Source: Malacoraja senta
Taxonomy: Eukaryota
Assembly: GCA_038087875.1 (NCBI GenBank)
Contig: CM075989.1
Location: 25,236,001-25,300,000, forward strand
DNA: 64,000 nucleotides
Direction: 5' to 3'
Translations under genes and position numbers: made by a program
In this document: piece after piece, positions 5,164-55,410 of the stretch
Position numbering within the stretch: position 1 is the stretch's first letter
Layout of the letters: each line of letters begins with the position of its first letter
Notes under the pieces: model-generated
Told to the model about the DNA's origin: nothing
What the model saw: only the letters and a program-made list of their open reading frames with translations
Databases searched by the model: none

Positions 5164-5794
5164 GTATTTCTCAGAACTGTAGTATTTGACGGCCACAGTC
5201 TATATATGGATGAACTGGGAGCAGAACTTTTATCAAAGTCCCCACCTACCTACCTGTTCCAATATAATAGTTAACACAGAGGTTATGGGGAGAAGGCAGG
5301 AGAATGGGGTTAGGAGGGAGAGATAGATCAGCCACGATTGAATGGCGGAGTAGACTGGTTGGGCCGAATGGCCTAATTCTGCTCCTATCACTTATGACCA
5401 TGTGAATAATGATATGCAAGTATATAACTTTAATTCTCCTGCATCCCTGGAATGAAACAATGACATTCTCATTTGCCGGAGCTTTAAGGGCACATTAATT
5501 AATGCAACAACAACAAATAAATATACAATAATCAATTTACTCAGAGCTGCTGTAGATTTGGAAGCAACAGCAGGTGAAGATTAGCAAGAGAAAACACTGA
5601 TTGGCTCTAGCCCAAGAGGGAGCAGAGAAGTGAGTCAAAGCGGGGAAAACAGTTGAAAACTGAGGAATTTGGATTGTAAATTGGTAAATTAGGCAATTTA
5701 TCAGTCAATATAAGCAAGACTGCTCTTAGGGAGCGGCCTTGTGAGGGAAGTGTGAGTCTTTGGCTCGAGAGTCTTCGGCGAGGAGGCTGAGGAG

Positions 5795-6766
5795 ATGAGG
5801 CTACGCAAAACACTGCAGAGGGAGAGACGAAAGAAGGAGATGTCAGGCAAGCTGATTCAGTGTGATGCTTGCAGTATGTGGGAGGTCAAGGACACTGCTG
5901 GTGCCTCTGGCTGCTACAAATGTGACAAGTGCATCCAGGTACAGATCCTGAAGGACCGTGTTGGGGAACTGGAGAAGCAAGTGGATGACCTCAGGTTTGT
6001 CCGAGAAACGGAGTCGTTCCTCGACAAGTCCTACAGTAAGATTGTTACACCTAAGGTACTGGAAGAGAGAAGGTGGGAGACAGTGAGAAAGGGAGGGAAG
6101 CATGGAATGCAAACGTCCCCGGGTGTTGTACCTGTTGTGAACAGGTTCACCCACTTAGAAGCTGTCGGGACAGAAGACGTTTTAACACTGAGCGGCAGAC
6201 TGGCTTGCGATGCGAATAGGGCTGTTGAGCCAAAACCAAAAAGGCCAAAGTCAGGCAACGCCATTGTAGTGGGAGACTCCATTGTGAGAGGTACGGACAG
6301 GGGTTTCTGCGGCAACAGACGGGATTCGAGGATGGTGTGCTGCCTTCCTGGTGCCAGGATCCAGGATGTCACGGACAGAGTGCAGAAAATCCTCAAGGGC
6401 GAAAGTGAACAGCCGGAAGTGGTGGTGCATGTCGGCACAAACGATGTCGGAAAGAAGGGGATGAATAATCTGCAGCGTGACTTTAGAGAGCTCGGAAAAA
6501 TGCTGAAAAGCAGGACCTCCAGGGTTGTTATCTCCGGTTTGCTTCCAGTTCCTCGTGCTGACGAGAGCAGGAACAGGGAGATACGGGACCTGAATGTGTG
6601 GCTGAGGAACTGGTGCACGGGGCAGGGATTTAGATTCTTAGATCACTGGGATCTGTTTTGGAGTGAAAGGGAACTGTACAAAAGGGACGGATTGCATCTT
6701 AACAGGTGGGGGACCAGCATTCGGGCAGGCAGGTTTGCCACTGCTACACGGGTGGTTTTAAACTGA
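5795..6766 (+). CDS. CR1 ORF1p: CxxC/CxxC zinc finger, coiled coil, SGNH esterase domain
   Basis: CDAC...CDKC, heptad LKDRVGELEKQVDDL, SGNH blocks GDSIV, PGA, HVGTND, DGLHL; alternative ATG at 5840. Confidence 0.9.
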   Translation: MRLRKTLQRERRKKEMSGKLIQCDACSMWEVKDTAGASGCYKCDKCIQVQILKDRVGELEKQVDDLRFVRETESFLDKSYSKIVTPKVLEERRWETVRKGGKHGMQTSPGVVPVVNRFTHLEAVGTEDVLTLSGRLACDANRAVEPKPKRPKSGNAIVVGDSIVRGTDRGFCGNRRDSRMVCCLPGARIQDVTDRVQKILKGESEQPEVVVHVGTNDVGKKGMNNLQRDFRELGKMLKSRTSRVVISGLLPVPRADESRNREIRDLNVWLRNWCTGQGFRFLDHWDLFWSERELYKRDGLHLNRWGTSIRAGRFATATRVVLN

Positions 6767-9603
6767 ATAAGGTGGGTGGGGTGTCAAATGGGATAGTTGA
6801 GGATGGAGTTAAAGGGAAAGGGTTTCTTAAATGTGTGGGCGTAGAGACAGAGGGGTGTAAAATGAGGGTAGAAGCAATCGGTAGCAAGGTGAAAAGTAAA
6901 AGTGGCAGGCAGACAAATCCAGGGCAAAAATCAAAAAGGGCCAATTTTCAACATAATTGTATAAGGGGTAAGAGTGTTGTAAAAACAAGCCTGAAGGCTT
7001 TGTGTCTCAATGCAAGGAGCATTTGTAATAAGGTGGATGAGTTGAATGTGCTGGTAGCTATTAATGACTATGATATAGTTGGGATCACGGAGACATGGCT
7101 CCAGGGTGACCAAGGCTGGGAGCTGAACATCCAGGGATATTCAATATTCAGGAGGGATAGACAGAAAGGGAAAGGAGGTGGGGTAGCGTTGCTAGTTAGA
7201 GAGCAGATTAACGCAATAGAAAGGAAGGACATTAGCTTGGAGGATGCGGAATCGATATGGGTAGAGCTGCGAAACACTAAGGGGCAGAAAACGCTAGTGG
7301 GAGTTGTGTACAGGCCACCTAACAGTAGTAGTGGAGTTGGGGATGTCTTCAAACAGGAAATTAGAAATGCATGCAACAAAGGTAAAACAGTTATAATGGG
7401 TGACTTCAATCTACATATAGATTGGGTGAATCAAATTGGCAAGGGTGCTGAGGAAGAGGATTTCTTGCAACGTATGCGGGATAGTTTTCTAAACCAACAT
7501 GTAGAGGAATCAACGAGAGAGCAGGCTATTCTAGATTGGGTATTGAGTAATGAGGAAGGGTTAGTTAGCAGTCTTGTTGTGCGTGGCCCCTTGGGCAAGA
7601 GTGACCATAATATGGTTGAGTTATTCATTAGGATGGAGAGTGACATTGTTAATTCAGAAACAAGGGTCCTGAACTTAAAGAAAGGTAACTTTGAGGGTAT
7701 AAGAAGTGAATTGCCCAAGATAGACTGGCAATTGATTCTTAATGGGTTGACGGTAGGTATGCAATGGAAGGCATTTAAAGACTGCATGGATGAACTACAA
7801 CAATTGTTCATCCCAGTTTGGCAAAAGAATAAATCAGGGAAGGTAGTGCATCCATGGATAACAAGGGAAATCAGGGATAGTATCAAAACAAAAGATGAAG
7901 CGTACAAATTAGCCAGAAAAAGCAGCCTACCAGAGGACTGGGAGAAATTCAGAGTCCAGCAGAGGAGGACAAAGGGCTTAATTAGGAAAGGGAAAATAGA
8001 TTATGAAACAAAACTGGCAGTGAACATAAAAACTGACTGCAAAAGCTTTTATAGATATGTGAAGAGAAAAAGATTAGTTAAAACAAATGTAGGTCCCTTG
8101 CAGTCAGAAACAGGTGAATTGATCATGGGGAACAAGGACATGGCAGTCCAATTGAATAACTACTTTGGTTCTGTCTTCACTAAGGAAGACATAAATAATC
8201 TGCCGGAAATAGCAGGGGACCGGAGGTCAAATGAGATGGAGGAACTGAGTGAAATCCAGGTTAGCCGGGAAGTGGTGTTAGGTAAATTGAATGGATTAAA
8301 GGCCGATAAATCCCCAGGGCCAGATAGGCTGCATCCCAGAGTACTTAAGGAAGTAGCCCCAGAAATAGTGGATGCATTAGTGATAATTTTTCAAAACTCT
8401 TTAGATTCTGGAGTAGTTCCTGAGGATTGGAGGGTAGCTAATGTAACCCCACTTTTTAAGAAGGGAGGGAGAGAGAAAACGGGGAATTACAGACCAGTTA
8501 GTCTAACGTCGGTAGTGGGGAAACTGCTAGAATCATTTATTAAAGATGGGATAGCAGCACATTTGGAAAGTGGTGAAATCATTGGACAAAGTGAGCATGG
8601 ATTTATGAAAGGTAAATCATGTCTGACGAATCTTATAGAATTTTTCGAGGTTGTAACTAGTAGAATGGATAAGGGAGAACCAGTGGATGTGTTATATCTG
8701 GACTTTCAGAAGGCTTTCGACAAGGTCCCACATAAGAGATTAGTATACAAACTTAAAGCACACGGTATTGGGGGTTCAGTATTGATGTGGATAGAGAACT
8801 GGCTGGCAAACAGGAAGCAAAGAGTAGGAGTAAACGGGTCCTTTTCACAATGGCAGGCTGCGACTAGTGGGGTACCGCAAGGCTCAGTGCTGGGACCCCA
8901 GCTATTTACGATATATATTAATGATTTGGACGAGGGAATTGAATGCAACATCTCCAAGTTTGCGGATGACACGAAGCTGGGGGGCAGTGTTAGCTGTGAG
9001 GAGGATGCTCGGAGGCTGCAATGTGACTTGGATAGGCTGGGTGAGTGGGCAAATGCATGGCAGATGCAGTATAATGTGGATAAATGTGAGGTTATCCACT
9101 TTGGTGGCAAAAACAGGAAAGTAGACTATTATCTGAATGGTGGCCGATTAGGAAAAGGGGAGATGCAACGAGACCTGGGTGTCATGGTACACCAGTCATT
9201 AAAAGTAGGCATGCAGGTGCAGCAGGCAGTGAAGAAGGCGAATGGTATGTTAGCATTCATAGCAAAAGGATTTGAGTATAGGAGCAGGGAGGTTCTACTG
9301 CAGTTGTACAGGGTCTTGGTGAGACCACACCTGGAGTATTGCGTACAGTTTTGGTCTCCTAATCTGAGGAAAGACATTCTTGCCATAGAGGGAGTACAGA
9401 GAAGGTTCACCAGACTGATTCCTGGGATGTCAGGACTTTCATATGAAGAAAGACTGGATAGACTCGGTTTGTACTCGCTAGAATTTAGAAGATTGAGGGG
9501 GGATCTTATAGAAACGTACAAAATTCTTAAGGGGTTGGACAGGCTAGATGTAGGAAGATTGTTCCCAATGTTGGGGAAGTCCAGAACAAGGGGTCACAGT
9601 TAA
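6757..9603 (+). CDS. CR1 ORF2p: AP endonuclease plus reverse transcriptase (C-terminal 65 aa displaced by a 1-nt deletion; start uncertain)
   Basis: EN motifs NARS, TETW, YRPP, GDFN, SDHN; RT motifs YLDFQKAFDKV, GVPQGSVLGP, KFADDTK; first in-frame ATG at 6862; start given at the slippery site. Confidence 0.9.
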   Translation, partial: FKLNKVGGVSNGIVEDGVKGKGFLKCVGVETEGCKMRVEAIGSKVKSKSGRQTNPGQKSKRANFQHNCIRGKSVVKTSLKALCLNARSICNKVDELNVLVAINDYDIVGITETWLQGDQGWELNIQGYSIFRRDRQKGKGGGVALLVREQINAIERKDISLEDAESIWVELRNTKGQKTLVGVVYRPPNSSSGVGDVFKQEIRNACNKGKTVIMGDFNLHIDWVNQIGKGAEEEDFLQRMRDSFLNQHVEESTREQAILDWVLSNEEGLVSSLVVRGPLGKSDHNMVELFIRMESDIVNSETRVLNLKKGNFEGIRSELPKIDWQLILNGLTVGMQWKAFKDCMDELQQLFIPVWQKNKSGKVVHPWITREIRDSIKTKDEAYKLARKSSLPEDWEKFRVQQRRTKGLIRKGKIDYETKLAVNIKTDCKSFYRYVKRKRLVKTNVGPLQSETGELIMGNKDMAVQLNNYFGSVFTKEDINNLPEIAGDRRSNEMEELSEIQVSREVVLGKLNGLKADKSPGPDRLHPRVLKEVAPEIVDALVIIFQNSLDSGVVPEDWRVANVTPLFKKGGREKTGNYRPVSLTSVVGKLLESFIKDGIAAHLESGEIIGQSEHGFMKGKSCLTNLIEFFEVVTSRMDKGEPVDVLYLDFQKAFDKVPHKRLVYKLKAHGIGGSVLMWIENWLANRKQRVGVNGSFSQWQAATSGVPQGSVLGPQLFTIYINDLDEGIECNISKFADDTKLGGSVSCEEDARRLQCDLDRLGEWANAWQMQYNVDKCEVIHFGGKNRKVDYYLNGGRLGKGEMQRDLGVMVHQSLKVGMQVQQAVKKANGMLAFIAKGFEYRSREVLLQLYRVLVRPHLEYCVQFWSPNLRKDILAIEGVQRRFTRLIPGMSGLSYEERLDRLGLYSLEFRRLRGDLIETYKILKGLDRLDVGRLFPMLGKSRTRGHS

Positions 9604-11394: not shown

Positions 11395-12334
11395 GTAAGT
11401 GGTCCCTCTCTGACCGCGGGTTGTTGGGCAATGAGGAGCTGAGCGCGTGGAGTTTGGACCGAGATGGATTGGGTGTCTAGTCCCTGCCTCGTCCAGCCCA
11501 GCTTGGACACAGTGAATGACTTAATGACCCACTTTATAGCCATGGAAGCTATGTGGTGACCTCTGGAAATTAAAGTTAATAACCCACTTCATAGCCAATC
11601 AAACTATGTCCAACATCAGTGGGAAGATGTCAAGTACGAAGTATGTTTGTTATTTGAGTTGTGGAGAAGGGCATCGTCTCAGGAGATCCACCTGTACATG
11701 TGAGAAACATTGGAACTCTACAGCAATGCCCTCTGCACTGGTCTATGTAGACTTGGTTTGAGATGGATGGTTCTATGTTCAGCAAAAGGAGAAGAGACAA
11801 AGGTCTGACAATATTGTCAGAGATGAACCATGATCTCCTTGAATGTTGGGCTCAGTTTGAATGTTGTAATGTTTCTGTTTTTCCCTTTTATGCTCCCATT
11901 TCCCAAACCTCTGACCAGAACAACCGATCTTCTCATATTTACATCAAAATATCTCTTAAACTTAACTAAATATATTAGGTTTGCTCAGCTTTCCCCACTC
12001 CATGAGAAACAGCGATAACCTGGAGTGACTCTACACACTCAAATATTAAAAACAAAATACTTGTAGCCGGATCCCGTGAAGGAAAGCTAAACGCTTCGAC
12101 TGTTCCTGGTTGTTTCAGAATAAGTTCTGTTCATGTCACACGCGCTGGTCTAGCTGGGAAGGGGACTGAGCACAGAGCCTTGGGCTGAGTGCTGCTGTCA
12201 TTGTGTGGTCCAGAGCCAAAGGCCTTGTGCCAAGTGACCACAGACCTCTGAGACAAAAGCAACCTGTTGCCAAAAACAAAAGTAAAATGCTATTACAAGC
12301 TCATCAAGTGAAGTACATTCATCTCTGTTTGCAG

Positions 12335-21158: not shown

Positions 21159-22552
21159 TCCTTACTGATGCAATGCAAAAGCTATCCATAGCTCTGTAAA
21201 TTCATCACTCATCCAGCACCTTATTGGACCCTACAGGTGAATCTGCTTCTGTATTCCAGTCCCCGATTACCTGCCAGCCACCTTTATAGGGCCCTGGTAA
21301 CTCCACCAATAGCAATGGCTTTGATCTGCCAGCCATGGTTTTGGATTCCTCTATGACCTCTCTGCAGCCACAGAGAAAACCTTGTCAATGAACATAAAGA
21401 TGTCCCGCTCCCTAGAATCACCTGTAATTCTCTCCTCTACCCCACCTTCAACGGGAAATACTGTAAACATTCATCTGGTCAGGCAGCATCTGTGGAAAGA
21501 GAAAAGCAGATTACTCTTTGCTCTGGATTCTGGCATCTGCAGGCTCTGACATCTCATTTGTTTTCTGGGTTAAGTTACCATCTCTCGAAGGTCCTGTCCG
21601 TGTCCCCAGCAGATGCAATACTTCCTCTCTTGCTGAGATTAGTTCATAAATCATAGGAGAAGAATTAGGCTATTCGGCCCATCGACTCCACTCCGCCATT
21701 CAATCAGGGCTGATCTATCTCTCAACTCCCCTTCTCCCCGTAACCCCCGACACCCGGACTAATCAAGAATCTGTCATTCTCCGCCTTCAAAATACCCACT
21801 GAATCCCACAGATTCACCACCCTCTGACTAAAGAAATTCCTCCTCATCTTCTTCCTAACGGTACATCCAGTTAGCATCAACACCAAATAGTTTTATGTGA
21901 ATTGGTTTGAGACTCATTTTGTGTAAAGCTCAAAAACCTTCATTCTGGAACAAGTTGCTGCCAGAAGTTGTTCTGAACTTCCCTTTACCGGGTGTTGCTG
22001 TTAAACATCTGAGAATGATTTGTGTTTCATTAATCCCAATAATCACAAACAAATGAGACAAATTCATTCAAGGGTGAGTTTAAAAGAACTGCATATTGCT
22101 GCCTATGGTATGGTTTGAGTTGCAACGAGCTAACTGTGTTGCTTCCTCAACAAGGATGTTATCAGAGTCTTCTGTCTTGTTCCTATCTTGTCTCTGTTCT
22201 GATGAAAAGTCATTGTGCTGGAATATTCACTGTCTTCCCCTCTCCACAGATGCTGCCTTACCTGCTGACAATTCACACACTTCTGTTCTGTTTTTATCTT
22301 TTCAGCATCCCCAGTTTTGTTTTGTTGTTAATTTATTATAACTCTGCCACTTAGTTCCTGTCCCGTCTGCTTTGGCAAACAGACCCAAATAGTTTGCTCA
22401 GCCAGCTGTGGATGATCAGCCATGATCACAGTGAATGATGGTGCTATCTATTGTCTATTGTGTTCCAAAGGGAATGACCATGACCTGTCCAAGCCTTCAC
22501 CGTGAGCTTACATTTCCAATCCTGGCAACATCTTGGCTCATTGCTGTCCGCT

Positions 22553-23514
22553 GCCCCCTGTAATCCCATCTACACCCGGCCCTGTAATTCCATCTACACC
22601 CTGCCCTGTAATCCCATCTACACCCTGCCCTGTAATCCCATCTACACCCTGCCCTGTAATCCCATCTACACCCTGCCCTGTAATCCCATCTACACCCTGC
22701 CCTGTAATCCCATCTACACCTTGCTCCCTGTAATCCCATCTACACCCTGCCCCCTGTAATCCCACCTACACCCTGCCCCCTGTAATCCTATCTACACCCG
22801 GCCCTGTGTAATCCCATCTACACCCGGCCCCCTGTAATCCCATCTACACCCGGCCCTGTAATCCCATCTACACCCTGCCCTGTAATCCCATCTACACCTT
22901 GCTCCCTGTAATCCCATCTACACCCTGCCCCCTGTAATCCCATCTACACCCTGCCCCCTGTAATCCTATCTACACCCGGCCCTGTGTAATCCCATCTACA
23001 CCCGGCCCCCTGTAATCCCATCTACACCCGGCCCCCTGTGATCCCATCTACACCCGGCCCCCTGTAATCCCATCTACACCCGGCCCCCTGTAATCCCATC
23101 TACACCCTGCCCCCTGTAATCCCATCTACACCCGGCCCTGTGTAATCCCATCTACACCCGCCCTGTGTAATCCCATCTACACCCTGCCCTGTAATCCCAT
23201 CTACACCCGGCCCCGTGTAATCCCATCTACACCCTGCCCCCTGTAATCCCATTTACACCCGGCCCTGTGTAATCCCATCTACACCCGGCCCTCTGTAATC
23301 CCATCTACACCCGGCCCTGTGTAATCCCATCTACACCCGGCCCCGTGTAATCCCATCTACACCCGGCCCTGTGTAATCCCATCTACACCCTGCCCTGTGT
23401 AATCCCATCTACACCCTGCCCTGTGTAATCCCATCTACACCCTGCCCTGTGTAATCCCATCTACACCCTGCCCTGTGTAATCCCATCTACACCCGGCCCT
23501 GTGTAATCCCATCT
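22553..23514. repeat. 24-27-bp minisatellite, about 960 bp
   Basis: Unit ccctgtaatcccatctacaccc(t/g)g with variants. Confidence 0.92.
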
Positions 23515-29895: not shown

Positions 29896-30624
29896 GTGAG
29901 TTTCCAGAGCTTGGTGTGAAGTGGTGACTCGTCATGCTCCTGTTGACAAGACTGAAGGTCATGAGATCACTGAAGACCACTGGTCCACCTGAGCCGCTCT
30001 GGCAATGAGTGAGACTTTAATGCAAGGCCCAGCGATGAATATAAACAGTCCTATTGTTTGTCCACATTTTCCAGTTTCCTGCTCCACTAAATGACACAAC
30101 GGTATCTGGTCATCAACAACAGTTAGTGTGTGTGGCCAGATCCAGCATCGTGTTTAGGAAGGGGGAGTCGAGAGGTTATGGGGCATTCACCAGCATATCC
30201 TTGGGGCGAGGGGTCACGAGGGGTCACTACCCAGCGGGGGGCAGCGTTATAGCAGTGTGTCTGGGCCACTCACCAAACCCAGTCGACCAGAAGGTGCCGG
30301 TCAAGGGGCAGCTCACCCCCCCGTCCCTGTCCCTGTCCCTGTCCATCCCATCCTGCAGCGGAAGTTTCCTGGCCCATTGACTCTGTCCCAGCTCTCTGCA
30401 GGAGTGGCCAACCTACCTGTACCACAGACCTGTAATTATTTTACCCAATATTACCGAGCCAGCAGTTCATAAATGTTTAAACATCAGATTTCTTTCTCCA
30501 TAAATGACCACTAAGTTAAATCCCTGCGTTGATCTTGCCCCCTGCAGCTTTCAGTATCTTTGCTTTGTGGATATGAGGCTCCATATTAGTGTGGTGGAGG
30601 GTTAACCCTTTGTGTGCCCCACAG

Positions 30625-34297: not shown

Positions 34298-34690
34298 GTT
34301 GGTACACGGGGTATTGACAGTGTTGGTACACGGGGTATTGACAGTGTTGGTACATGGGGTATTGACAGTGTTGGTACACGGGGTATTGACAGTGTTGGTA
34401 CATGGGGTATTGACAGTGTTGGTACACAGGGTATTGACAGTGTTGGTACACGGGGTATTGACAGTGTTGGTACACGGGGTATTGACAGTGTTGGTACATG
34501 GGGTATTGACAGTGTTGGTACACGGGGTATTGACAGTGTTGGTACATGGGGTATTGACAGCGTTGGTACACAGGGTATTGACAGGGTTGGTACATGGGGT
34601 ATTGACAGTGTTGGTACATGGGGTATTGACAGTGTTGGTACATGGGGTATTGACAGTGTTGGTACACGGGGTATTGACTGTGTTGGTACA
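34298..34690. repeat. 24-bp minisatellite
   Basis: Unit gttggtacac(g/t)gggtattgacagt-type, about 16 copies. Confidence 0.92.
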
Positions 34691-34751
34691 CTTGCTGGTC
34701 TGGACTCCTGTTCCGTTACCGCTGTGTGACCTGTTCCTCCCATCCTCCCAG

Positions 34752-34946
34752 GTGGACCTGTTCTCGTTCGGCATGGTCCTGTACGAGCTGCTGTCTGGAC
34801 AGCGGCCGATCCTTGGCCACCACCAGGTGCAGATTGTGAAGAAACTGTCCAAAGGCATCCGACCTCTGCTGGGATCGCTGGAGGAGGTGCAGTTCCACCC
34901 GATGCAGAGCCTGATGATCGAGTGCTGGGACACAAAGCCGGAGAAG
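34752..34946 (+). CDS. LRRK1: LRRK1 exon (window exon 20, kinase C-lobe)
   Basis: tcccag/gtaaag; [38 protein letters not shown]...ECWDTKPEK. Confidence 0.95.
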
Positions 34947-35280
34947 GTAAAGAAATGCCAGAGACGGGGCCGTGGAAATGGAAGGCTAGCATGCCGGGCA
35001 GCATGGTGGTGCAGCGGATAGAGCCACTGCCTCACACTGCCAGAGACCCGGGTTCAATCCCGACCTCAGGTGCTGTCTGTGTGGAGTTTGCTGATCAATG
35101 GTCAGCATGGACTCAGTGGGCCTAAGGGTCTGTTTCCATGCTGTATCTCTGAACTACTAAAGGATAGCAGTGGGGCATCAGAAATGACAGCAGGAGTCTG
35201 AAAACCCACCGACTGAAGGTGCAGAACAGGCAAACAAAGATGGAATTTAACAAAGAATGCAGTAAACACTCAGCCGGTCT

Positions 35281-35361
35281 CAGCGTGGTGAATATCAAAG
35301 ATACTAGTATCTTTGGTGAATATTGACCAAGGGCTGATACAGCTTGACCACACCAAGTTGT
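35281..35361 (+). pseudogene. Decayed partial copy of LRRK1 window exon 22, interrupted by a 20-bp TIR footprint
   Basis: cagcgtggtgaatat[28-bp insert]tgaccaagggctgatacagcttgaccaca matches 37099-37142 cagcgtggtgaatattgacaaagggctgatagaggttgaccaca. Confidence 0.8.
35296..35315. mobile_element. 20-bp perfect palindrome of two transposon ends with an 8-bp TSD (excision footprint or minimal MITE)
   Basis: GTGAATAT-CAAAGATACTAGTATCTTTG-GTGAATAT. Confidence 0.8.
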
Positions 35362-36014
35362 GAAATGTTCATCGTTTCACCACAGCCCTTCCTATTGGGC
35401 ACTTCCTGCATCTCCTGGTTTTACTTCACATCTGCAGCATCTGCAGTTGTTGACATTGACTATTGCCGTTTGTTAACTTCTCGCCAGAGAATGGCTGGAG
35501 GTTCCAGTGCAATCTCTCTGCCTCAAGTACGCCAACTCAAGTACAATAGGTAGAGCAAGGTTAGAGGTGACAAAAGACATTTATGGTACTATTTGTGATT
35601 GTAAATTTAGCTCAAGCAGCCTCTCCCGTCAGGCAGAAGCTTGAAAGCCCGCACCACCAGACTCAGGAACAGCTTCTTCCCCTCTGTTATCATGCTTCTG
35701 AACGGTCCTTCCATAAGCTAGGGTACTGTCCTATCCACCTCTACCCCATTGCGGACATTGGACTTTGTCTCTGGAACTGATGCTCTACAATGCTGAGAAC
35801 TATATTCTGCACTCTGTATCTTCCCCTTTGCTCTACCGATTGTACTTGAGTTTGACGATTATATTTATGTATGGTATTATCTGAACTGTTTGGATAGCGT
35901 GCAGAACAAATCCTTTCACTGTAGCTCGGTACACGTGGCAATATTAAACCTGGACCTAAACCCTGACCTAAGAGGTTTATACTGACTATTCATTTTCCAC
36001 GTCTCTCTGCCCAG

Positions 36015-36166
36015 CGGCCGGCAGCGAGCTGTATCGTCAGGTTGATGCGAGATCCCAGCTTCCCAGTCTTCATGTACACCCTGCAGACGGGTAGACAACA
36101 CCTGTTCTGTCCTTCACTCGACCACGAGCGCACCGTCATCTTCTGGAATGAAGAAGGAAGCAAAAG
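36015..36166 (+). CDS. LRRK1: LRRK1 exon (window exon 21, kinase end and WD40 start)
   Basis: gcccag/gtacgt; RPAASCIVRLMRDPSFPVFMYTLQTGRQHLFCPSLDHERTVIFWNEEGSK. Confidence 0.9.
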
Positions 36167-36175
36167 GTACGTCTG

Positions 36176-36797
36176 GCAGCATCCGTCCACACACTCACCT
36201 GGTGCAGCATTTGTCCATACACTCACCTGGTGCAGCATCCGTCCACACACTCACCTGGTGCAGCATTTGTCCATACACTCACCTGGTGCAGCATTTGTCC
36301 ATACACTCACCTGGTGCAGCATCCGTCCACACACTCACCTGGTGCAGCATCCGTCCACACACTCACCTGGTGCAGCATTTGTCCATACACTCACCTGGTG
36401 CAGCATTTGTCCATACACTCACCTGGTGCAGCATCCGTCCACACACTCACCTGGTGCAGCATTTGTCCATACACTCACCTGGTGCAGCATCCGTCCACAC
36501 ACTCACCTGGTGCAGCATCCGTCCATACACTCACCTGGTGCAGCATCCGTCCACACACTCACCTGGTGCAGCATTTGTCCATACACTCACCTGGTGCAGC
36601 ATTTGTCCATACACTCACCTGGTGCAGCATCCGTCCACACACTCACCTGGTGATGCATTTGTCCATACACTCACCTGGTGCAGCATTTGTCCATACACTC
36701 ACCTGGTGCAGCATCCGTCCATACACTCACCTGGTGCAGCATCCGTCCACACACTCACCTGGTGCAGCATTTGTCCACACACTCACCTGGTGCAGCA
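36176..36797. repeat. 28-bp minisatellite
   Basis: Unit gcagcat(cc/tt)gtcca(c/t)acactcacctggt, about 22 copies, starting about 10 nt after an exon donor. Confidence 0.92.
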
Positions 36798-37092: not shown

Positions 37093-37210
37093 GAACTACA
37101 GCGTGGTGAATATTGACAAAGGGCTGATAGAGGTTGACCACATCAGCTGTCCAGGAGCTGGGCTGAGCTGCCAACTGAAGCTTCACACTGCGCTGTGGAC
37201 CGCTACTAAG
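37093..37210 (+). CDS. LRRK1: LRRK1 exon (window exon 22, WD40)
   Basis: cggcag/gtgagc; RNYSVVNIDKGLIEVDHISCPGAGLSCQLKLHTALWTATK. Confidence 0.92.
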
Positions 37211-47800: not shown

Positions 47801-47823
47801 CCTGGAGTGGCTGCTGTCAAAAC

Positions 47824-48211
47824 CAAAGATCCTATAGCGAGCAAGATAGTCCACTCGACGAAAAAGACGTGGTACGGTCATGGGCAGACTCATGGGTAAT
47901 TTAAGGCCCCATTTCCGTAACCGGCTATCGTCTCCGCACCAAATATCCCATAGGATAATAGTGCAGAGACGGAAGCCGGTTACGGAAACATCCTCCTAAA
48001 AATAAAAGTTATTTGGTAAAAATCTTCTCATTTTCAGAAATTTAATTTATTAACACAAACTGTTCCCCCGCAACATTGATTACACTGCAAGTCGGGTCGG
48101 GTCACGGAAATGGATGAAAAAAAAGGCCCACGTTCCGTTCCGTTGCGTACTACACGTCAGCCTCTGGCATTTAGCAGGAGTGGTCTATCTTGCTCCGCTA
48201 TAGGATCTTTG
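47824..48211. mobile_element. 388-bp non-autonomous TIR DNA transposon (P- or hAT-like)
   Basis: About 33-bp TIR CAAAGATCCTATAGCG(G)AGCAAGATAG(T/A)CCACTC; perfect 8-bp TSD GTCAAAAC at 47816-47823 and 48212-48219. Confidence 0.88.
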
Positions 48212-50483
48212 GTCAAAACCACAACACAGACACAGGAAGCTACCCCCTCCCTCCCCTCTTCAAGAAAGTTAAAGGAATGTTAATTTGTACTAAGGTGTTG
48301 CTGAATGGCTTCATTATTTCTCAGGATGTCCTCTCACAGTCTTCTGATAACAAGCTCTGTTTAACATAGAGGTTGGCAGAAAATGTAGAAAGTGATTTAA
48401 ATACGATGCAAATATCAGTTGATAAGTTGATACGATTCAACTGAATGTAGCTCTGAATTGTACGGATGACATCTCGGCAAATAAAAAGAGAAACTGTAGC
48501 CTAGAGTGGACTTTACTCCACAACAGTGCTATAAAGTATTGACATTTCAACAAAGATGGGATCAGTAGATAATTTCATACATAGTGAAAGCCAGGAGGAA
48601 ATCACCATGGCGCCGAAAAAGTTAAGATGTTAGTTTGAAGCTAAGTGAAGCTAACCACTCTCACTTTTAACAGAGCCAGATATTTCTATGATTGTTTGCA
48701 TAAAGTATTCACTCAGACCTCAATTCCTGAGATTATGCAACCAATAACCATGCTCCAACACTCTACTGATATATACACACATTCTACTCCCAAACAACTT
48801 TTCCTTTAACACTAGCTTTAATAAAGCAGCCCATAAATTTAAATGGCTTCTTCAGCTTACAGTAAACGAACAGCACATACATGAACAGATGCCTCGGGGA
48901 GGGAGTTAATTTGGAGTCAAATAAAATCCTTGGAATGCAAGATGGATTGGCTCAATCCATGAGAAGGGATTGATGATCAGGAATGGAGCCTTGAAGTACT
49001 GGATCAAACAACAATTGACCGAGTGGAAGAGCCAGACTACAAGGTAGAATTTTCAAAACCAAGCACCAATGCATGATTGATTGTAATGGGCTGGCTTGGC
49101 AAGGCAAGCCAAACGCAAGGCAAGCCAAAGGCCAACTCTGGTGGTAATGCACATCAAGATGTGCCAGTGATCCCAAAGAAAATATGGTCCGTTCTCTTCT
49201 GTTCAATTTTCTTCTGAACTATTTTGTGGCCAAACTAAAGCCCTTCTTCTTCTTGCGAATGAAACATAAACCAAAGGAATAGTTAGATCTCAAGCCGGGT
49301 GTTGAGCAGCCAGGTTGTTGTCTCTGTGTCAACTAAAGTCCAAGATCTACACTTTTGGATTAGGATGGAGTGTTGGGGTCTGGATCCCGTCTCAATATTT
49401 TAAAGGATTAACCAGCATTTCTTTTCTAAGCAAACATTACAAAAGGGTTAAAACCCCTATGTTCTAGATCTATGGCTCAAATAAGTGAACAACATGAATG
49501 GAGAAATTTACTTTGTGGAGGAAGGATTGGGCAGGAGATGAAAGCATAGACTTTAGAAAGGCCAGTATATGCAACACAATAAAATGAAGATACTGCAAAA
49601 GTGGACCCAAATTAATGTAAGGCGATAGGACAAGACAGTGAATCACAGCAATGATGAAATTAAACCAAAGTTAGTGGAGAAGATGGCCACCAATCACCTC
49701 CATAAAAATCCATAGCCTGCTAAATTTACACAACACTTGATGAATAAACAAATTATAACTTAGTCATTGCTTCACTGTTGGCATCTAAAATCTATACATT
49801 ATGACAAAAAGTAACAAGGTTAACAACTGAAGTCTGATACATTAGCTAATTGACCAAAAGTTAAATAAAAGTAATGGAGTAACAACCAAGTTGATGTGCA
49901 ATAGCCCCTCAATATTAAAGGGGCTTAAATCCTTTCAGAAATTTAATTATCATGGCCAAATTATTCACATTATAAATGGAGATACAAGTAACTGCAGATG
50001 CTGAAATCTTGAGCAAAATACAAAGTGCTGGAGTAGATCAGCAGGTTAGGCAGCATCTGTGGCGGGAATGAACAATTAACGCTTTGGTTTGGGACCAGAT
50101 GTTAGTTGACAAATGGATGGAAGTCTGGAGTACAGTCCCGGCCCAAAGCGGCACCTGTCCACTGCCTCCACAAATGCTGCCTAATCTGCCGAGTTACTCC
50201 AGCACTGTGTTTCATTCACATGAGAGTTAGATGTTGTAATCTCGGGGAGCTGGACGGCCATGATTTTACCCCTCTGCTCCTCGACCTGGAGCACTGTAAA
50301 TGTGCCGCGGGTATAAATCAGCCCACCATTCACCACAATATTAAACAGCCCATGTGTGGCCACAACGTTCCTTTATTCAAAGTAAAAGGTCTTATCTGTA
50401 AAACGTTTATTTACAATATAATCAATTTACTTTATAAAAAACATTAAAAAATAAATTATGAAGTTCTCCAGCCGAGCTGGATA

Positions 50484-52073
50484 TTATGCTGTCCTCTTTG
50501 AACTATCAAGTGTGCTGGCGTTGCTGGGACTGGGCCGATGCCTCTCCAGCCACAGCTCGGCTAGCTGCTGCGTGGAACTGTATGTCGATGCTCGCGACGC
50601 CAAGCACATTTTGTATTGATTAGGTTCCAAATTTGGGTCACAGTAGATTGGATGATGGATATGAATGATTCCAACTTCTTGACTCCTGAATGGTTTTAAA
50701 CCAACCTGAATGACTTTGTTGTAGAGATCTACGTCCTCCATTCCCCAGCCCTGGATCGAGATGTTGAACCCACCAGCAAATAGAAGATCACTTTTGTACA
50801 CACATGTGATCCCAAAGCCATAGTGTCTCCAGAATCCAGTCTTCATTGTAAAAGCAGAATTGTTGTCACTGGGAGGTTTGCCAGCATGTACAATCTTGGG
50901 GTCAAACTGGGTAAAGATAATTGGAAAATATACTTGCTTCCCTGGCACAGCATTAGTTCTGCAACGCTGCAGAAAATCCACCGTAAAGATCAAGTCAACA
51001 TCACAAAACAGAAGTAGGGAGTCATTGCTAAACTGGGCAGCTCCAAGGTGCAGAGCAAGAGCTCTTGAAAACTGCCCCAGAACTGCCCGGACCTGGATCT
51101 CTGCTTTGGGATATTTCACCTGATAATCTCTTGTCAACTCAAATTGTTTTATTTTGTCTGGATTTGAATCGGAATTGAGTAGCAATATAACTAACCTGAC
51201 ATTTTGATTTGTAATCAGACAAGTCCTTTCAAAGTTTTCCATGAATCTCACAAACATTTCATAGCGACCAGACAGAGGGACCAAGACGTTGATTTTCTGA
51301 TCTTTGGGCTTATGTTCAACATTACTGGCTCCAAGTTGGAAGGGGACAAATATTTGGAGTGGGTTTGAGAGGATGGAGAGAGATTGTGAGTTCCTGTTAA
51401 TTTGGTTAGCCAAGTCTGCAGCATCAATCTCTTCACTCTCATAAAACTGGACCTTGCTGAATGTTTGCTGCAGATAAGCATGTCTTCTTACAGGGACAGT
51501 CATCTTCTTTCCCTTGTGCTTTTTATAGAGAAGGAGCAGGTCAAGTACATACTCTGCCCCATACATAGGGTTAACCCTTCTGTAGCCATACTGAATTTCT
51601 TTGAAGTCAATAATGCGGCCTCTAGATTTGGCGTTGGCATTAATCATTTCCATCAACTGCATGATGATGTCATCTAAAGCTTCTTTCTGAGACAGATCCA
51701 TCCCCTTTCTTGGCGGCTCTCCATCAAAAGCCGAATAAAGGTGTTTCCCCGTCAGGAAGTCCCATTCCAGAACCTCGTCCCTGTTCCCAGGCTGGAAGCG
51801 CATAAAGGAAGGTGGAATTCCCAACTGGATGTCATCTGGGTGAAGCTCAGTGTTGGTGTACTTGCCCATGAGTGCCACCTCCCGGTGAAGCAGTATGGTG
51901 CGGTGACGAAACTCAGACATTCGGTGGCTCAGCATGTAGCGGTGGAGGCGGTATTGATATTCGGGGCTCTTGTTTGGATGTAGCGTGATTGCACGCCGGA
52001 TCTTGGTGTTGTGGAGGTCCTGGATATAACCTTTTTTGTTCTGTTCGTAGTTTTCATAAAATAGCTGCTGCAT
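50484..52073 (-). CDS. CHSY1: Chondroitin sulfate synthase 1, last coding exon (upstream exons not found in the window)
   Basis: Pyrimidine tract plus CAG acceptor at 52074-52076 (minus); MQQLFYENYEQNKKGYIQDLH...QYGYRRVNPMYGAEYVLDLLLLYKKHKGKKMTVPVRRHAYLQQTF...FCDVDL (DxD)...GWGMEDVDL...RTA*; convergent with LRRK1 as in human. Confidence 0.96.
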   Translation of the reverse strand: MQQLFYENYEQNKKGYIQDLHNTKIRRAITLHPNKSPEYQYRLHRYMLSHRMSEFRHRTILLHREVALMGKYTNTELHPDDIQLGIPPSFMRFQPGNRDEVLEWDFLTGKHLYSAFDGEPPRKGMDLSQKEALDDIIMQLMEMINANAKSRGRIIDFKEIQYGYRRVNPMYGAEYVLDLLLLYKKHKGKKMTVPVRRHAYLQQTFSKVQFYESEEIDAADLANQINRNSQSLSILSNPLQIFVPFQLGASNVEHKPKDQKINVLVPLSGRYEMFVRFMENFERTCLITNQNVRLVILLLNSDSNPDKIKQFELTRDYQVKYPKAEIQVRAVLGQFSRALALHLGAAQFSNDSLLLFCDVDLIFTVDFLQRCRTNAVPGKQVYFPIIFTQFDPKIVHAGKPPSDNNSAFTMKTGFWRHYGFGITCVYKSDLLFAGGFNISIQGWGMEDVDLYNKVIQVGLKPFRSQEVGIIHIHHPIYCDPNLEPNQYKMCLASRASTYSSTQQLAELWLERHRPSPSNASTLDSSKRTA

Positions 52074-53339: not shown

Positions 53340-55410
53340 ATAAGATCATGTAATTGGAGCAGTTAGGCCATTCGGCCCATCAAATGTACTCCGCCATTCA
53401 ATCATGGCTGATCTATCTCTCCCTCCTAGCCCCATTCTCCTGCCCTCTCCCCATAACCCGTACTAATCTACTATCTCTGCCTTAAAAATATCCACTGACG
53501 TGGCCTCCAGCCTTCTGTGGCAAAGAATTCCACAGATTCACCACCCTCTGACTAAAGAAATTCCCTCTCATCTACTTCCTAAAGGAATGTCCTTTAATTC
53601 TGAGGCTATGACCTCAAGCCCGAGACTCTCCCACAAGTGGAAACATCCTCTCCACATCCACTCTATCCAAGCCTTTCACTATCCTGTGTATTTCAATGAT
53701 GACCCCCCTCATTCTTCTAAACACCAGTGAGTACAGGCCCAGTGCTGTCAAACGCTCATCATTCCTGGGATCATTCTTGTAAACCTCCTCTGGACCCTCC
53801 CCAGAGCCAGAACATCCTTCTTCAGATATGGTGCCCAAATTTGCTCACAATATTCTAAATGCGGCCTGACCAGTGCCTTATAGAACCTCAGCATTACATC
53901 AGGTACACAAAAATGCTGGAGAAACTCAGCGGGTGCAGCAGCATCTATGGAGCGAAGGAAATAGGCAACGTTTCGGGCTGAAACCCTTCTTCAGACTGAT
54001 GGGGGAGTGGGAGGGGGCAGGGAGAAGAAAGGAAAAAGGAGGAGGAGCCCGAGGGCTGAGGGAGAGCTGGGAAGGGGAGGAGACAGCAAGGGCTAACAGA
54101 ATTGTGAGAATTCAATGTTCATGCCACCAGGATGCAGACTCCCCAAGTTGAATATGAGGTGCTGTTCCTCCAATTTCCGGTGGTGCTCACTCTGGCCATG
54201 GAGGAGGACCAGGACAGAGGTCGGATACGGAATGGGAGGGGGAGTTGAAGTGCTGAGCCACCGGGAGGTCAGGTTGGTTAATGCGGACCGAGCGGAGGTG
54301 TTCGGCGAAACGATCGCCAAATCTACGCTTGGTCTCACCGATGTAGATCAGCTGACATCTAGAGCAGCGGATGCAATAGAAAGTGCCCGGGGAGGGGGTG
54401 GTGCGGGAGGGAAGGGAAGAATTGACAAGGGAGTTACGGAGGGAGCGGTCTTTGCGGAAGGCAGACAGGGGGGGAGATGGGAAGATGTGGTGAGTGGTGG
54501 GGTCACGTTGGAGGTGGCGAAACTGACGGAGGACTATATGTTGTATGTGATGGCTAGTGGGGTGAAAGGTGAGGACTAGGGGGACTCTGCCCTTGTTGCG
54601 AGTGGGGGGATGGGGAGAGAGAGCAGTGTTACGGGGTATGGAAGAGACCCTGGTGCGAGCCTCATCTATAGTAGGGGAGGGAAACCCCCGTTCCCTGAAG
54701 AATTAGGACATTTCCGATGCCCTGGTGTGGAACACCTCATCCTGGGAGCAGATGCGGCGTAGACGGAGGAATTGGGAATAGGGGATGGAGTCCTTACAGG
54801 AAGCAGGGTGGGAAGAAGAGTGGTCTAGATAGCCATGGGAGTCAGTGGGTTTATAGTGGATGTCGGTCAGAAGTATATCACCTGCGATGGAGATAATGAG
54901 GTCAAGGAATGGTAGGGAAGTGTCGGAAATGTCCAGGTGTATTTGAGTGCCGGATGGAAGTTAGTGGTGAAGCGGATGAAGTCAGTTAGTTGTGTGTGGG
55001 TGCAGGAGGTGGCACCAAAGCAATTGTCGATGTAGCGGAGGTAGAGGTCGGGGATGGGGCCCTGGTACGCCTCGAACAAGGATTGTTCGACGTACCCGAC
55101 AAAGAACCTCCTCTCTCAGCATTACATCCCTGTTTTTGTATACAAGCCCTCTCGAAATAAATGCTAGCATTGCACTTGCTTCCTTTACTAACCGATTGCG
55201 ACTTGCAGATTAACCTTTTGGGAATCCTGCACCAGCTAAGTCCATTTGCACCTCTAATTTCTGGATTCTCTCCCCATTTAGAAAACAGTCTACACCTTTG
55301 TTCCAACTACCAAAATGCACGACTCCACACTTTACTACACTATATTCCATCTGCCACTTCTCTGCCCACTCTCCCAACCTGTCCAAGTCCTTCTGCGGAG
55401 TCCCTGTCTG
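53340..55410 (-). mobile_element. Degraded CR1 fragment interrupted by a Penelope-like insertion
   Basis: CR1 RT remnants (DLDRLGEWAEKWQMEYSVVKC, ERLTALGLYSL) on both sides of the insert. Confidence 0.8.
53901..55114 (-). mobile_element. Penelope-like element fragment (RT C-terminus plus GIY-YIG) with TSD
   Basis: YLRYIDNCFGA (YIDD-like), FHPALKYTW, KLEEQHLIFNLGSLHPGGMN; TSD ctcagcattacatc at 53887-53900 and 55115-55128. Confidence 0.85.

Follow-up and report, generated by a model that had tools for sequence, protein, structure and literature searches.

We identified a short scar in an LRRK1 intron of the window (the whole stretch of DNA that was analysed, 64,000 nucleotides) that resembles a P-element excision footprint in each of the features accessible to testing: a target site duplication (TSD) of 7 or 8 bp, remnants of both terminal inverted repeats (TIRs) between intact TSD copies, and microhomology joints. 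The scar is very probably what remained of a longer TIR element after its excision or collapse.

At positions 35288-35323 the window holds one copy of GTGAATAT (35288-35295, + strand), a perfect 20-bp palindrome (35296-35315) and a second copy of GTGAATAT (35316-35323, + strand). This bore out the original prediction of a 20-bp palindrome with an 8-bp TSD at this place. Both copies of the 8-bp TSD are whole, the insert between them is TIR-like, and its CAAAG end agrees with the terminal motif YARNG. The palindrome is the longest perfect one in the 64-kb window, and its 20-mer has no second match with three or fewer mismatches there (0 in 100 shuffles). We read it as two overlapping TIR remnants. 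The first 12 nt of the left TIR (35296-35307, + strand) are the same 12 nt that open many TSD-flanked cores in metagenome contigs, and the first 12 nt of the right TIR (35304-35315, − strand) follow from the palindrome (12 + 12 − 4 = 20). The two remnants overlap at a self-complementary CTAG (35304-35307), the putative 4-nt microhomology that joined the ends and the best-scoring join predicted from two 17-nt tails. The direct repeat reaches 2 bp further upstream, and the site alone would also allow a reading of 10 + 18 bp; the edge of the palindrome and the related sites favour the 8 + 20 division. Two other palindromes were noted in the window. A perfect 18-bp palindrome without a flanking duplication lies at 11804-11821, and a 12-bp TTAA-centred palindrome, for which no paired ends were found, occurs twice (30598-30609 and 51567-51578), with its second copy inside a chondroitin-synthase ORF; this repetition is probably due to chance.

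The sequence that received the insertion is a 47-bp intronic duplicate of a piece of an LRRK1 exon, split by 28 bp (35281-35355, + strand) and located 1.8 kb upstream of that exon. The coding exon is bounded by AG and GT (37093-37210, + strand), and its translation matched the solved LRRK1 chains 8e04, 8e05 and 8fac (phmmer, E 4e-10). Its empty copy of the site (37099-37145) contains one GTGAATAT and is identical at 43 of 47 positions to 35281-35355 without the 28 bp. Because the exon copy has one GTGAATAT and no insert, the 28 bp represent an insertion that duplicated 8 bp of the target. An uninterrupted source at 37099-37142 had been part of the original prediction. Its single GTGAATAT and the inserted nature of the 28 bp held, and the source itself turned out to be LRRK1 coding exon, not a repeat. 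At position 35340, three related organisms have the letter of the exon. The duplicate shows a weak likeness to the end of the preceding exon, which makes a processed fragment a possible origin.

The target is a near-palindrome within a small duplicated fragment. We considered this near-palindrome as a P target motif and rejected it, since the TSD lies 2 bp off the centre of the target. The nature of the target, together with a direct repeat that can slide to 10 bp, would also suit a local accident of repair or replication (a templated insertion with duplication), or plain chance, with no transposon at all. We regard such an origin as hardly credible. A palindrome of at least 20 bp is expected 0.06 times per 64 kb and one with an adjoining 8-bp direct repeat about 1e-6 times, and the inserted 20 letters have no local template in the window and equal a TSD-flanked core that recurs in metagenome contigs.

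The scar locus is intronic and probably neutral. On its + strand the window contains exons with COR, kinase and WD40 matches, and on its − strand the chondroitin-synthase ORF. The LRRK1 introns also hold minisatellites at 22551-23514, 34298-34691 and 36176-36797 (units of 26, 24 and 28 bp in 38, 16 and 22 copies), which are young and GC-balanced, two of them lying within tens of bases of exon edges. Two overlapping long ORFs at 5756-9603 (336 and 966 aa between stops) read like what we take to be a nearly intact CR1-type LINE, and an ORF at 54190-54702, whose GIY-YIG match is weak and falls short of the cut-off (E 0.0009), is perhaps a Penelope-like fragment.

Inert and non-coding, the scar is probably of sufficient age for at least one related organism to have it too. 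The region 34700-36170 is partly present in 20 of 23 sequencing runs, and we compared four of these, each with a different organism code (X1, X4, X15 and X16; all contigs). Over 35099-35669, the X1 contig differs from the window by 21 substitutions and 30 gap letters, which arithmetic divides into 20 put in and 10 left out. Because only 10 letters are left out, the 28 bp cannot be missing from X1 in one piece, and the scar probably predates the split from the X1 organism. The X4 contig has 32 letters left out, which is compatible with an empty site. The X15 contig shows no difference and no gap over 35127-35474; it may come from the source species or sample, and so is not independent. X16 has no cover at 35200-35249 and a contig start at 35326, and was not counted as evidence. 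Extra contig depth was observed over the palindrome in the compared runs. No allele with a full element appeared among the matches listed for the four runs, which were dominated by high-copy repeats in the stretch and include none at the scar itself.

We next turn to the short cores of the same kind in metagenome contigs, which were scanned with the pattern CAAAGAT[A/C]CT, 0-16 bases, AG[G/T]ATCTTTG (core lengths of 20-36 bp). The scan returned at least 120 loci, and after 12 had been dropped as the same site seen twice, 108 distinct sites remained among the matches listed. At the edges of these 108 listed cores, perfect direct repeats of 7 bp were present at 24 sites and of 8 bp at 9; allowing one mismatch added 11 sites at 7 bp and 9 at 8 bp, and perfect repeats of 5, 6, 9 or 10 bp occurred at none. 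Shuffled flank pairs gave means of 0.24 (7 bp) and 0.10 (8 bp), with maxima of 3 and 2 in 5000 shuffles. In controls with a slightly stricter pattern, none of 13 prokaryote-genome matches and not the one viral-contig match carried a TSD. The identical 20-mer was found at eight of the 108 listed sites, seven times with a TSD whose copies differ at no more than one position (one perfect 8-bp, four 7/8, one perfect 7-bp, one 6/7 and one 6/8 among the eight), and had 0 matches in viral contigs. The motif and its length variants thus recur with TSDs, as the check proposed for them had anticipated, and they do so in metagenome contigs, that is, in the DNA of other organisms and not in the Malacoraja senta genome.

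Among the matches listed, TSD-bearing loci of at least 1 kb have a median long-ORF cover of about 0.3, compared to 0.76 for the rest, and the 38 ORFs beside TSD-bearing cores gave two reverse transcriptase matches and one SH3 match. With few long ORFs and these ORF matches, the TSD-bearing loci look like animal host DNA. No match of at least 45 bp between these loci and the window was present among the matches listed; they therefore probably belong to another lineage. Judged by these contigs, the identical scar apparently occurs in the DNA of other animals, unrelated to the host. Three further observations concern individual loci. At L063 (255-302) two 22-bp cores of the family are separated by 5 bp, the arrangement that would result if an element had moved to a position next to its donor site and then undergone a second excision. 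The core at L114 (301-327) internally repeats its own arm and is followed by a further partial arm downstream, resembling a templated insertion during end joining. A 30-bp hairpin with 12-bp arms and no TSD is conserved in seven cyanobacterial genomes (L121, L124, L127 and L129-L132, 301-330), and its resemblance to the ends of the scar family is probably a matter of chance.

The presence of a TSD appears to depend on core length. Among the matches listed, perfect TSDs flank 33 of 92 cores of 20-34 bp and none of the 16 cores of 35-36 bp (Fisher p 0.002); when one mismatch is tolerated, 51 of 92 and 2 of 16 qualify. This apparent ceiling of 34 bp (2 x 17) is drawn from two lengths above it (35 and 36 bp) in the DNA of other organisms. 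In the two longer cores that passed, L007 and L102, the inverted repeat extends into the flanks; L007 is also surrounded by prokaryote-like ORFs. Joining two 17-nt tails at microhomologies of at least 2 nt yields four products of at least 20 bp, namely 20, 26, 26 and 32 bp. The 17-nt end was taken from the 32-bp core itself, which makes the 32-bp rung circular and leaves the 20- and 26-bp rungs free of this. Exactly these products were observed at 17 of the 108 listed sites, 15 of which have a TSD. They rank as the three most frequent TSD-bearing cores among the matches listed (8, 6 and 3 sites). The top prediction is the join that gives the 20-mer, at the self-complementary CTAG of positions 9-12, the longest of the microhomologies; because this join needs the first 12 nt only, several sister families can yield the same 20-mer. 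In total, 90 distinct cores occur at the 108 listed sites, most of them private, asymmetric or with filler. Mostly private joints are what independent repair events should produce.

The presence of the same 20 bp at 8 of 108 independent listed sites, with 7- or 8-bp TSDs, could also be taken to mean that the 20-mer is a micro-element in its own right, which is mobilised in trans and inserts in its present form. We consider this quite improbable. Such an element does not account for 90 distinct cores with lengths of 20-34 bp and private joints among the 108 listed sites, and one favoured microhomology explains why the 20-mer recurs. The size of the 20-mer is a further difficulty, as the binding sites of P-type transposases reach well beyond 10 bp. 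Subterminal binding sites are required by these enzymes (PMC7776569).

When the window was searched for short TIR elements that have CA/TA-type ends and an 8-bp TSD, two came up, the scar and an intact, non-coding 388-bp element at 47824-48211 (47816-48219 with its 8-bp TSD, GTCAAAAC). The TIRs of this element are 33-34 bp long with 94% identity. It contains an internal inverted repeat of 77 bp (47912-47988), an 11-bp subterminal motif is present three times, and the element folds far better than its shuffled versions (z −11). Patterns for what we presume to be the THAP-site consensus gave one match each for two patterns and were uninformative. According to the original prediction, the CAAAGAT ends of the scar match the TIR of this element. 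The agreement is exact over 7 bases, with 10 identical among the first 11, and the 8-bp TSD is likewise present, but position 8 differs in both arms. Moreover, microhomology joining of the first 17 nt of the element predicts a 22-mer or a 12-mer and not the 20-mer. The 388-bp element therefore cannot be the direct parent of the scar, and its end sequence points to a sister family of that parent. Among the matches listed, the arms of the short metagenome cores L006 and L013 equal the first 16-17 nt of the 388-bp element, and two close variants of such cores (L054 and L077) have perfect 8-bp TSDs. The exact 26/27-nt end of the element had 0 matches in metagenome contigs and 0 in prokaryote genomes. 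As an intact copy, the element is a candidate substrate for an excision assay.

A scar of this kind could also arise without a transposase when a longer TIR element, be it P, hAT or another, collapses or its gap repair is aborted: the arms would pair, and slippage or end joining between the CTAGs would remove the interior. This process resembles the "nearly precise excision" of bacterial Tn10 and would leave the superfamily of the parent open between P, hAT and others. It has several points in its favour: the CTAGs of the two arms form a direct repeat that would give exactly the same 20-mer, the 8-bp TSD and YARNG ends suit hAT as well as P, and long-armed elements of such a kind fold strongly, as the z of −11 for the 388-bp element illustrates. 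Collapse predicts no 34-bp ceiling, however, in conflict with the 0 of 16 against 33 of 92 perfect TSDs among the matches listed. Filler or asymmetric joints, which are typical of end joining, occur in many cores, and the 7-bp TSDs on cores that share the first 10-12 nt point to the P/1360/Galileo group. We therefore judge collapse to be an unlikely origin. With regard to hAT, the 8-bp TSD and the YARNG end weigh against a P assignment inasmuch as they also fit hAT, and both are present at the scar; yet most related cores have 7-bp TSDs. A hAT footprint, which forms by the opening of a hairpin, would moreover be expected to consist of flanking DNA only, with no TIR left, and what we observed is a TIR-like insert between two whole TSDs.

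We propose that the scar was formed by excision. A P-superfamily DNA transposon of the cut-and-paste type, its ends starting CAAAGATACTAG, would have entered the LRRK1 intron and duplicated 8 bp of its target. A later staggered cut about 17 nt inside each end would have left a single-stranded tail of the terminal repeat on each flank; we infer the length of this tail from the biochemistry of the Drosophila P element and from the apparent 34-bp ceiling of the related cores. With end-to-end pairing of the tails impossible, they would have annealed at the CTAG of positions 9-12, and trimming and ligation would have given a joined product of 12 + 12 − 4 = 20 bp between intact TSD copies.

For an autonomous partner, the terminal sequences at issue are CAAAGATACTAG or CAAAGATCCTATAG. 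Pfam scans detected no transposase in 135 window ORFs of at least 85 aa outside the long LINE/CHSY ORFs and tandem arrays, and none in the 38 ORFs beside TSD-bearing metagenome cores. In the viral and prokaryote collections, 17-nt end patterns matched 18, 7 and 8 loci; a second end together with a TSD was seen at none of them, and these lone end matches were taken as chance. A full-length parent element was not found in the window, the metagenome contigs, or the prokaryote or viral collections searched. The original prediction of a P-element-style excision footprint is supported by the 7/8-bp TSDs, the apparent 34-bp ceiling and the microhomology ladder, and its P/THAP9 transposase is a deduction from these for which no autonomous partner was found. 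We think it likely that a P-type transposase made the cut and that the parent belonged to the P superfamily. A staggered cut by such a transposase would depend on GTP. The mechanism is established already; the end sequence and the host of the scar family appear to be new. Judged by titles and the opening lines of abstracts, the papers listed for these subjects contained nothing on these end sequences or on P elements in skates or cartilaginous fish, and Repbase or Dfam may already catalogue the family. More tentatively, and with somewhat more doubt than belief, we suggest that the cores could belong to an undescribed clade of the P superfamily with CAAAGAT[A/C]CTA ends and 7- or 8-bp duplications, active in this vertebrate lineage, whose repeats point to a skate or ray, and in unrelated, probably invertebrate hosts, possibly by horizontal transfer, and leaving a ladder of fixed scars of 20, 26 and 32 bp.

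Excision is one half of the life of a cut-and-paste element, and genomes rarely record it. If the cores are P-type scars, the long staggered cut of Drosophila would be common to distant P relatives, and P activity in vertebrates would widen beyond the zebrafish and medaka cases. Scars of 20-36 bp are normally overlooked by repeat annotation; if our reading is true, such a pattern with a 7/8-bp duplication would serve as a cheap marker of a past element, its end sequence and its repair route. Should the undescribed-clade reading be true as well, the ladder of scars would record the 17-nt stagger, and past excision rates and end-joining choices could be read without an active element.

We finally compared the scar and its related cores with known systems, as far as these are described in the available parts of the papers cited. 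Footprints of hAT elements differ in structure. Those of Ac/Ds are deletions or palindromes of flanking DNA (PMC5873905), and hAT footprints derive from flanking DNA (deletions, P-nucleotides) and not from both TIRs between intact TSDs. The scar shares with hAT elements the 8-bp TSD and the YARNG terminal motif, as in anole hATs (PMC3014272). This motif is cited for P (PMC2820524) as well as for hAT (PMC3014272) and does not discriminate between them, and the 7-bp TSDs seen in related cores are not described for hAT in the parts of PMC5873905 and PMC3014272 at hand. Among fish, zebrafish Pdre2 (PMC10983969) and medaka Izanagi (PMC2820524) are P-like elements with 8-bp TSDs, and Pdre2 is excised by zebrafish THAP9 (PMC10983969). 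Both resemble the present case in their vertebrate hosts, 8-bp TSD, CA-starting TIRs and non-autonomous copies, but their printed TIRs diverge from the scar ends after the first 2-3 bases (PMC10983969, PMC2820524). The same two papers, in their available parts, report no natural footprints of Pdre2 or Izanagi. Within the P superfamily, TSDs are 8 bp for P and 7 bp for 1360 and Galileo (PMC3698922, PMC1562414). The 7-bp TSDs at 24 of the 33 listed cores with a perfect TSD are like those of 1360/Hoppel and Galileo, unlike the 8-bp TSDs of the scar and the 388-bp element; this comparison is by TSD and not by sequence (PMC3698922). For the Drosophila P element, excision leaves 17-nt non-complementary 3' tails, and at donor joints the 8-bp TSDs are kept and the remnants of both tails are connected through short microhomologies, by blunt joints or with inserted sequence (PMC2895639, PMC7776569). 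The scar and its relatives differ from these footprints in their end sequence, in being represented by a natural fixed scar in a vertebrate-type genome, and in related cores with both 7- and 8-bp TSDs. They agree with them in a TSD kept on both sides, in remnants of both TIRs, apparently of at most 17 nt each and with microhomology joints, and in a few recurrent lengths accompanied by filler variants (PMC2895639, PMC7776569).
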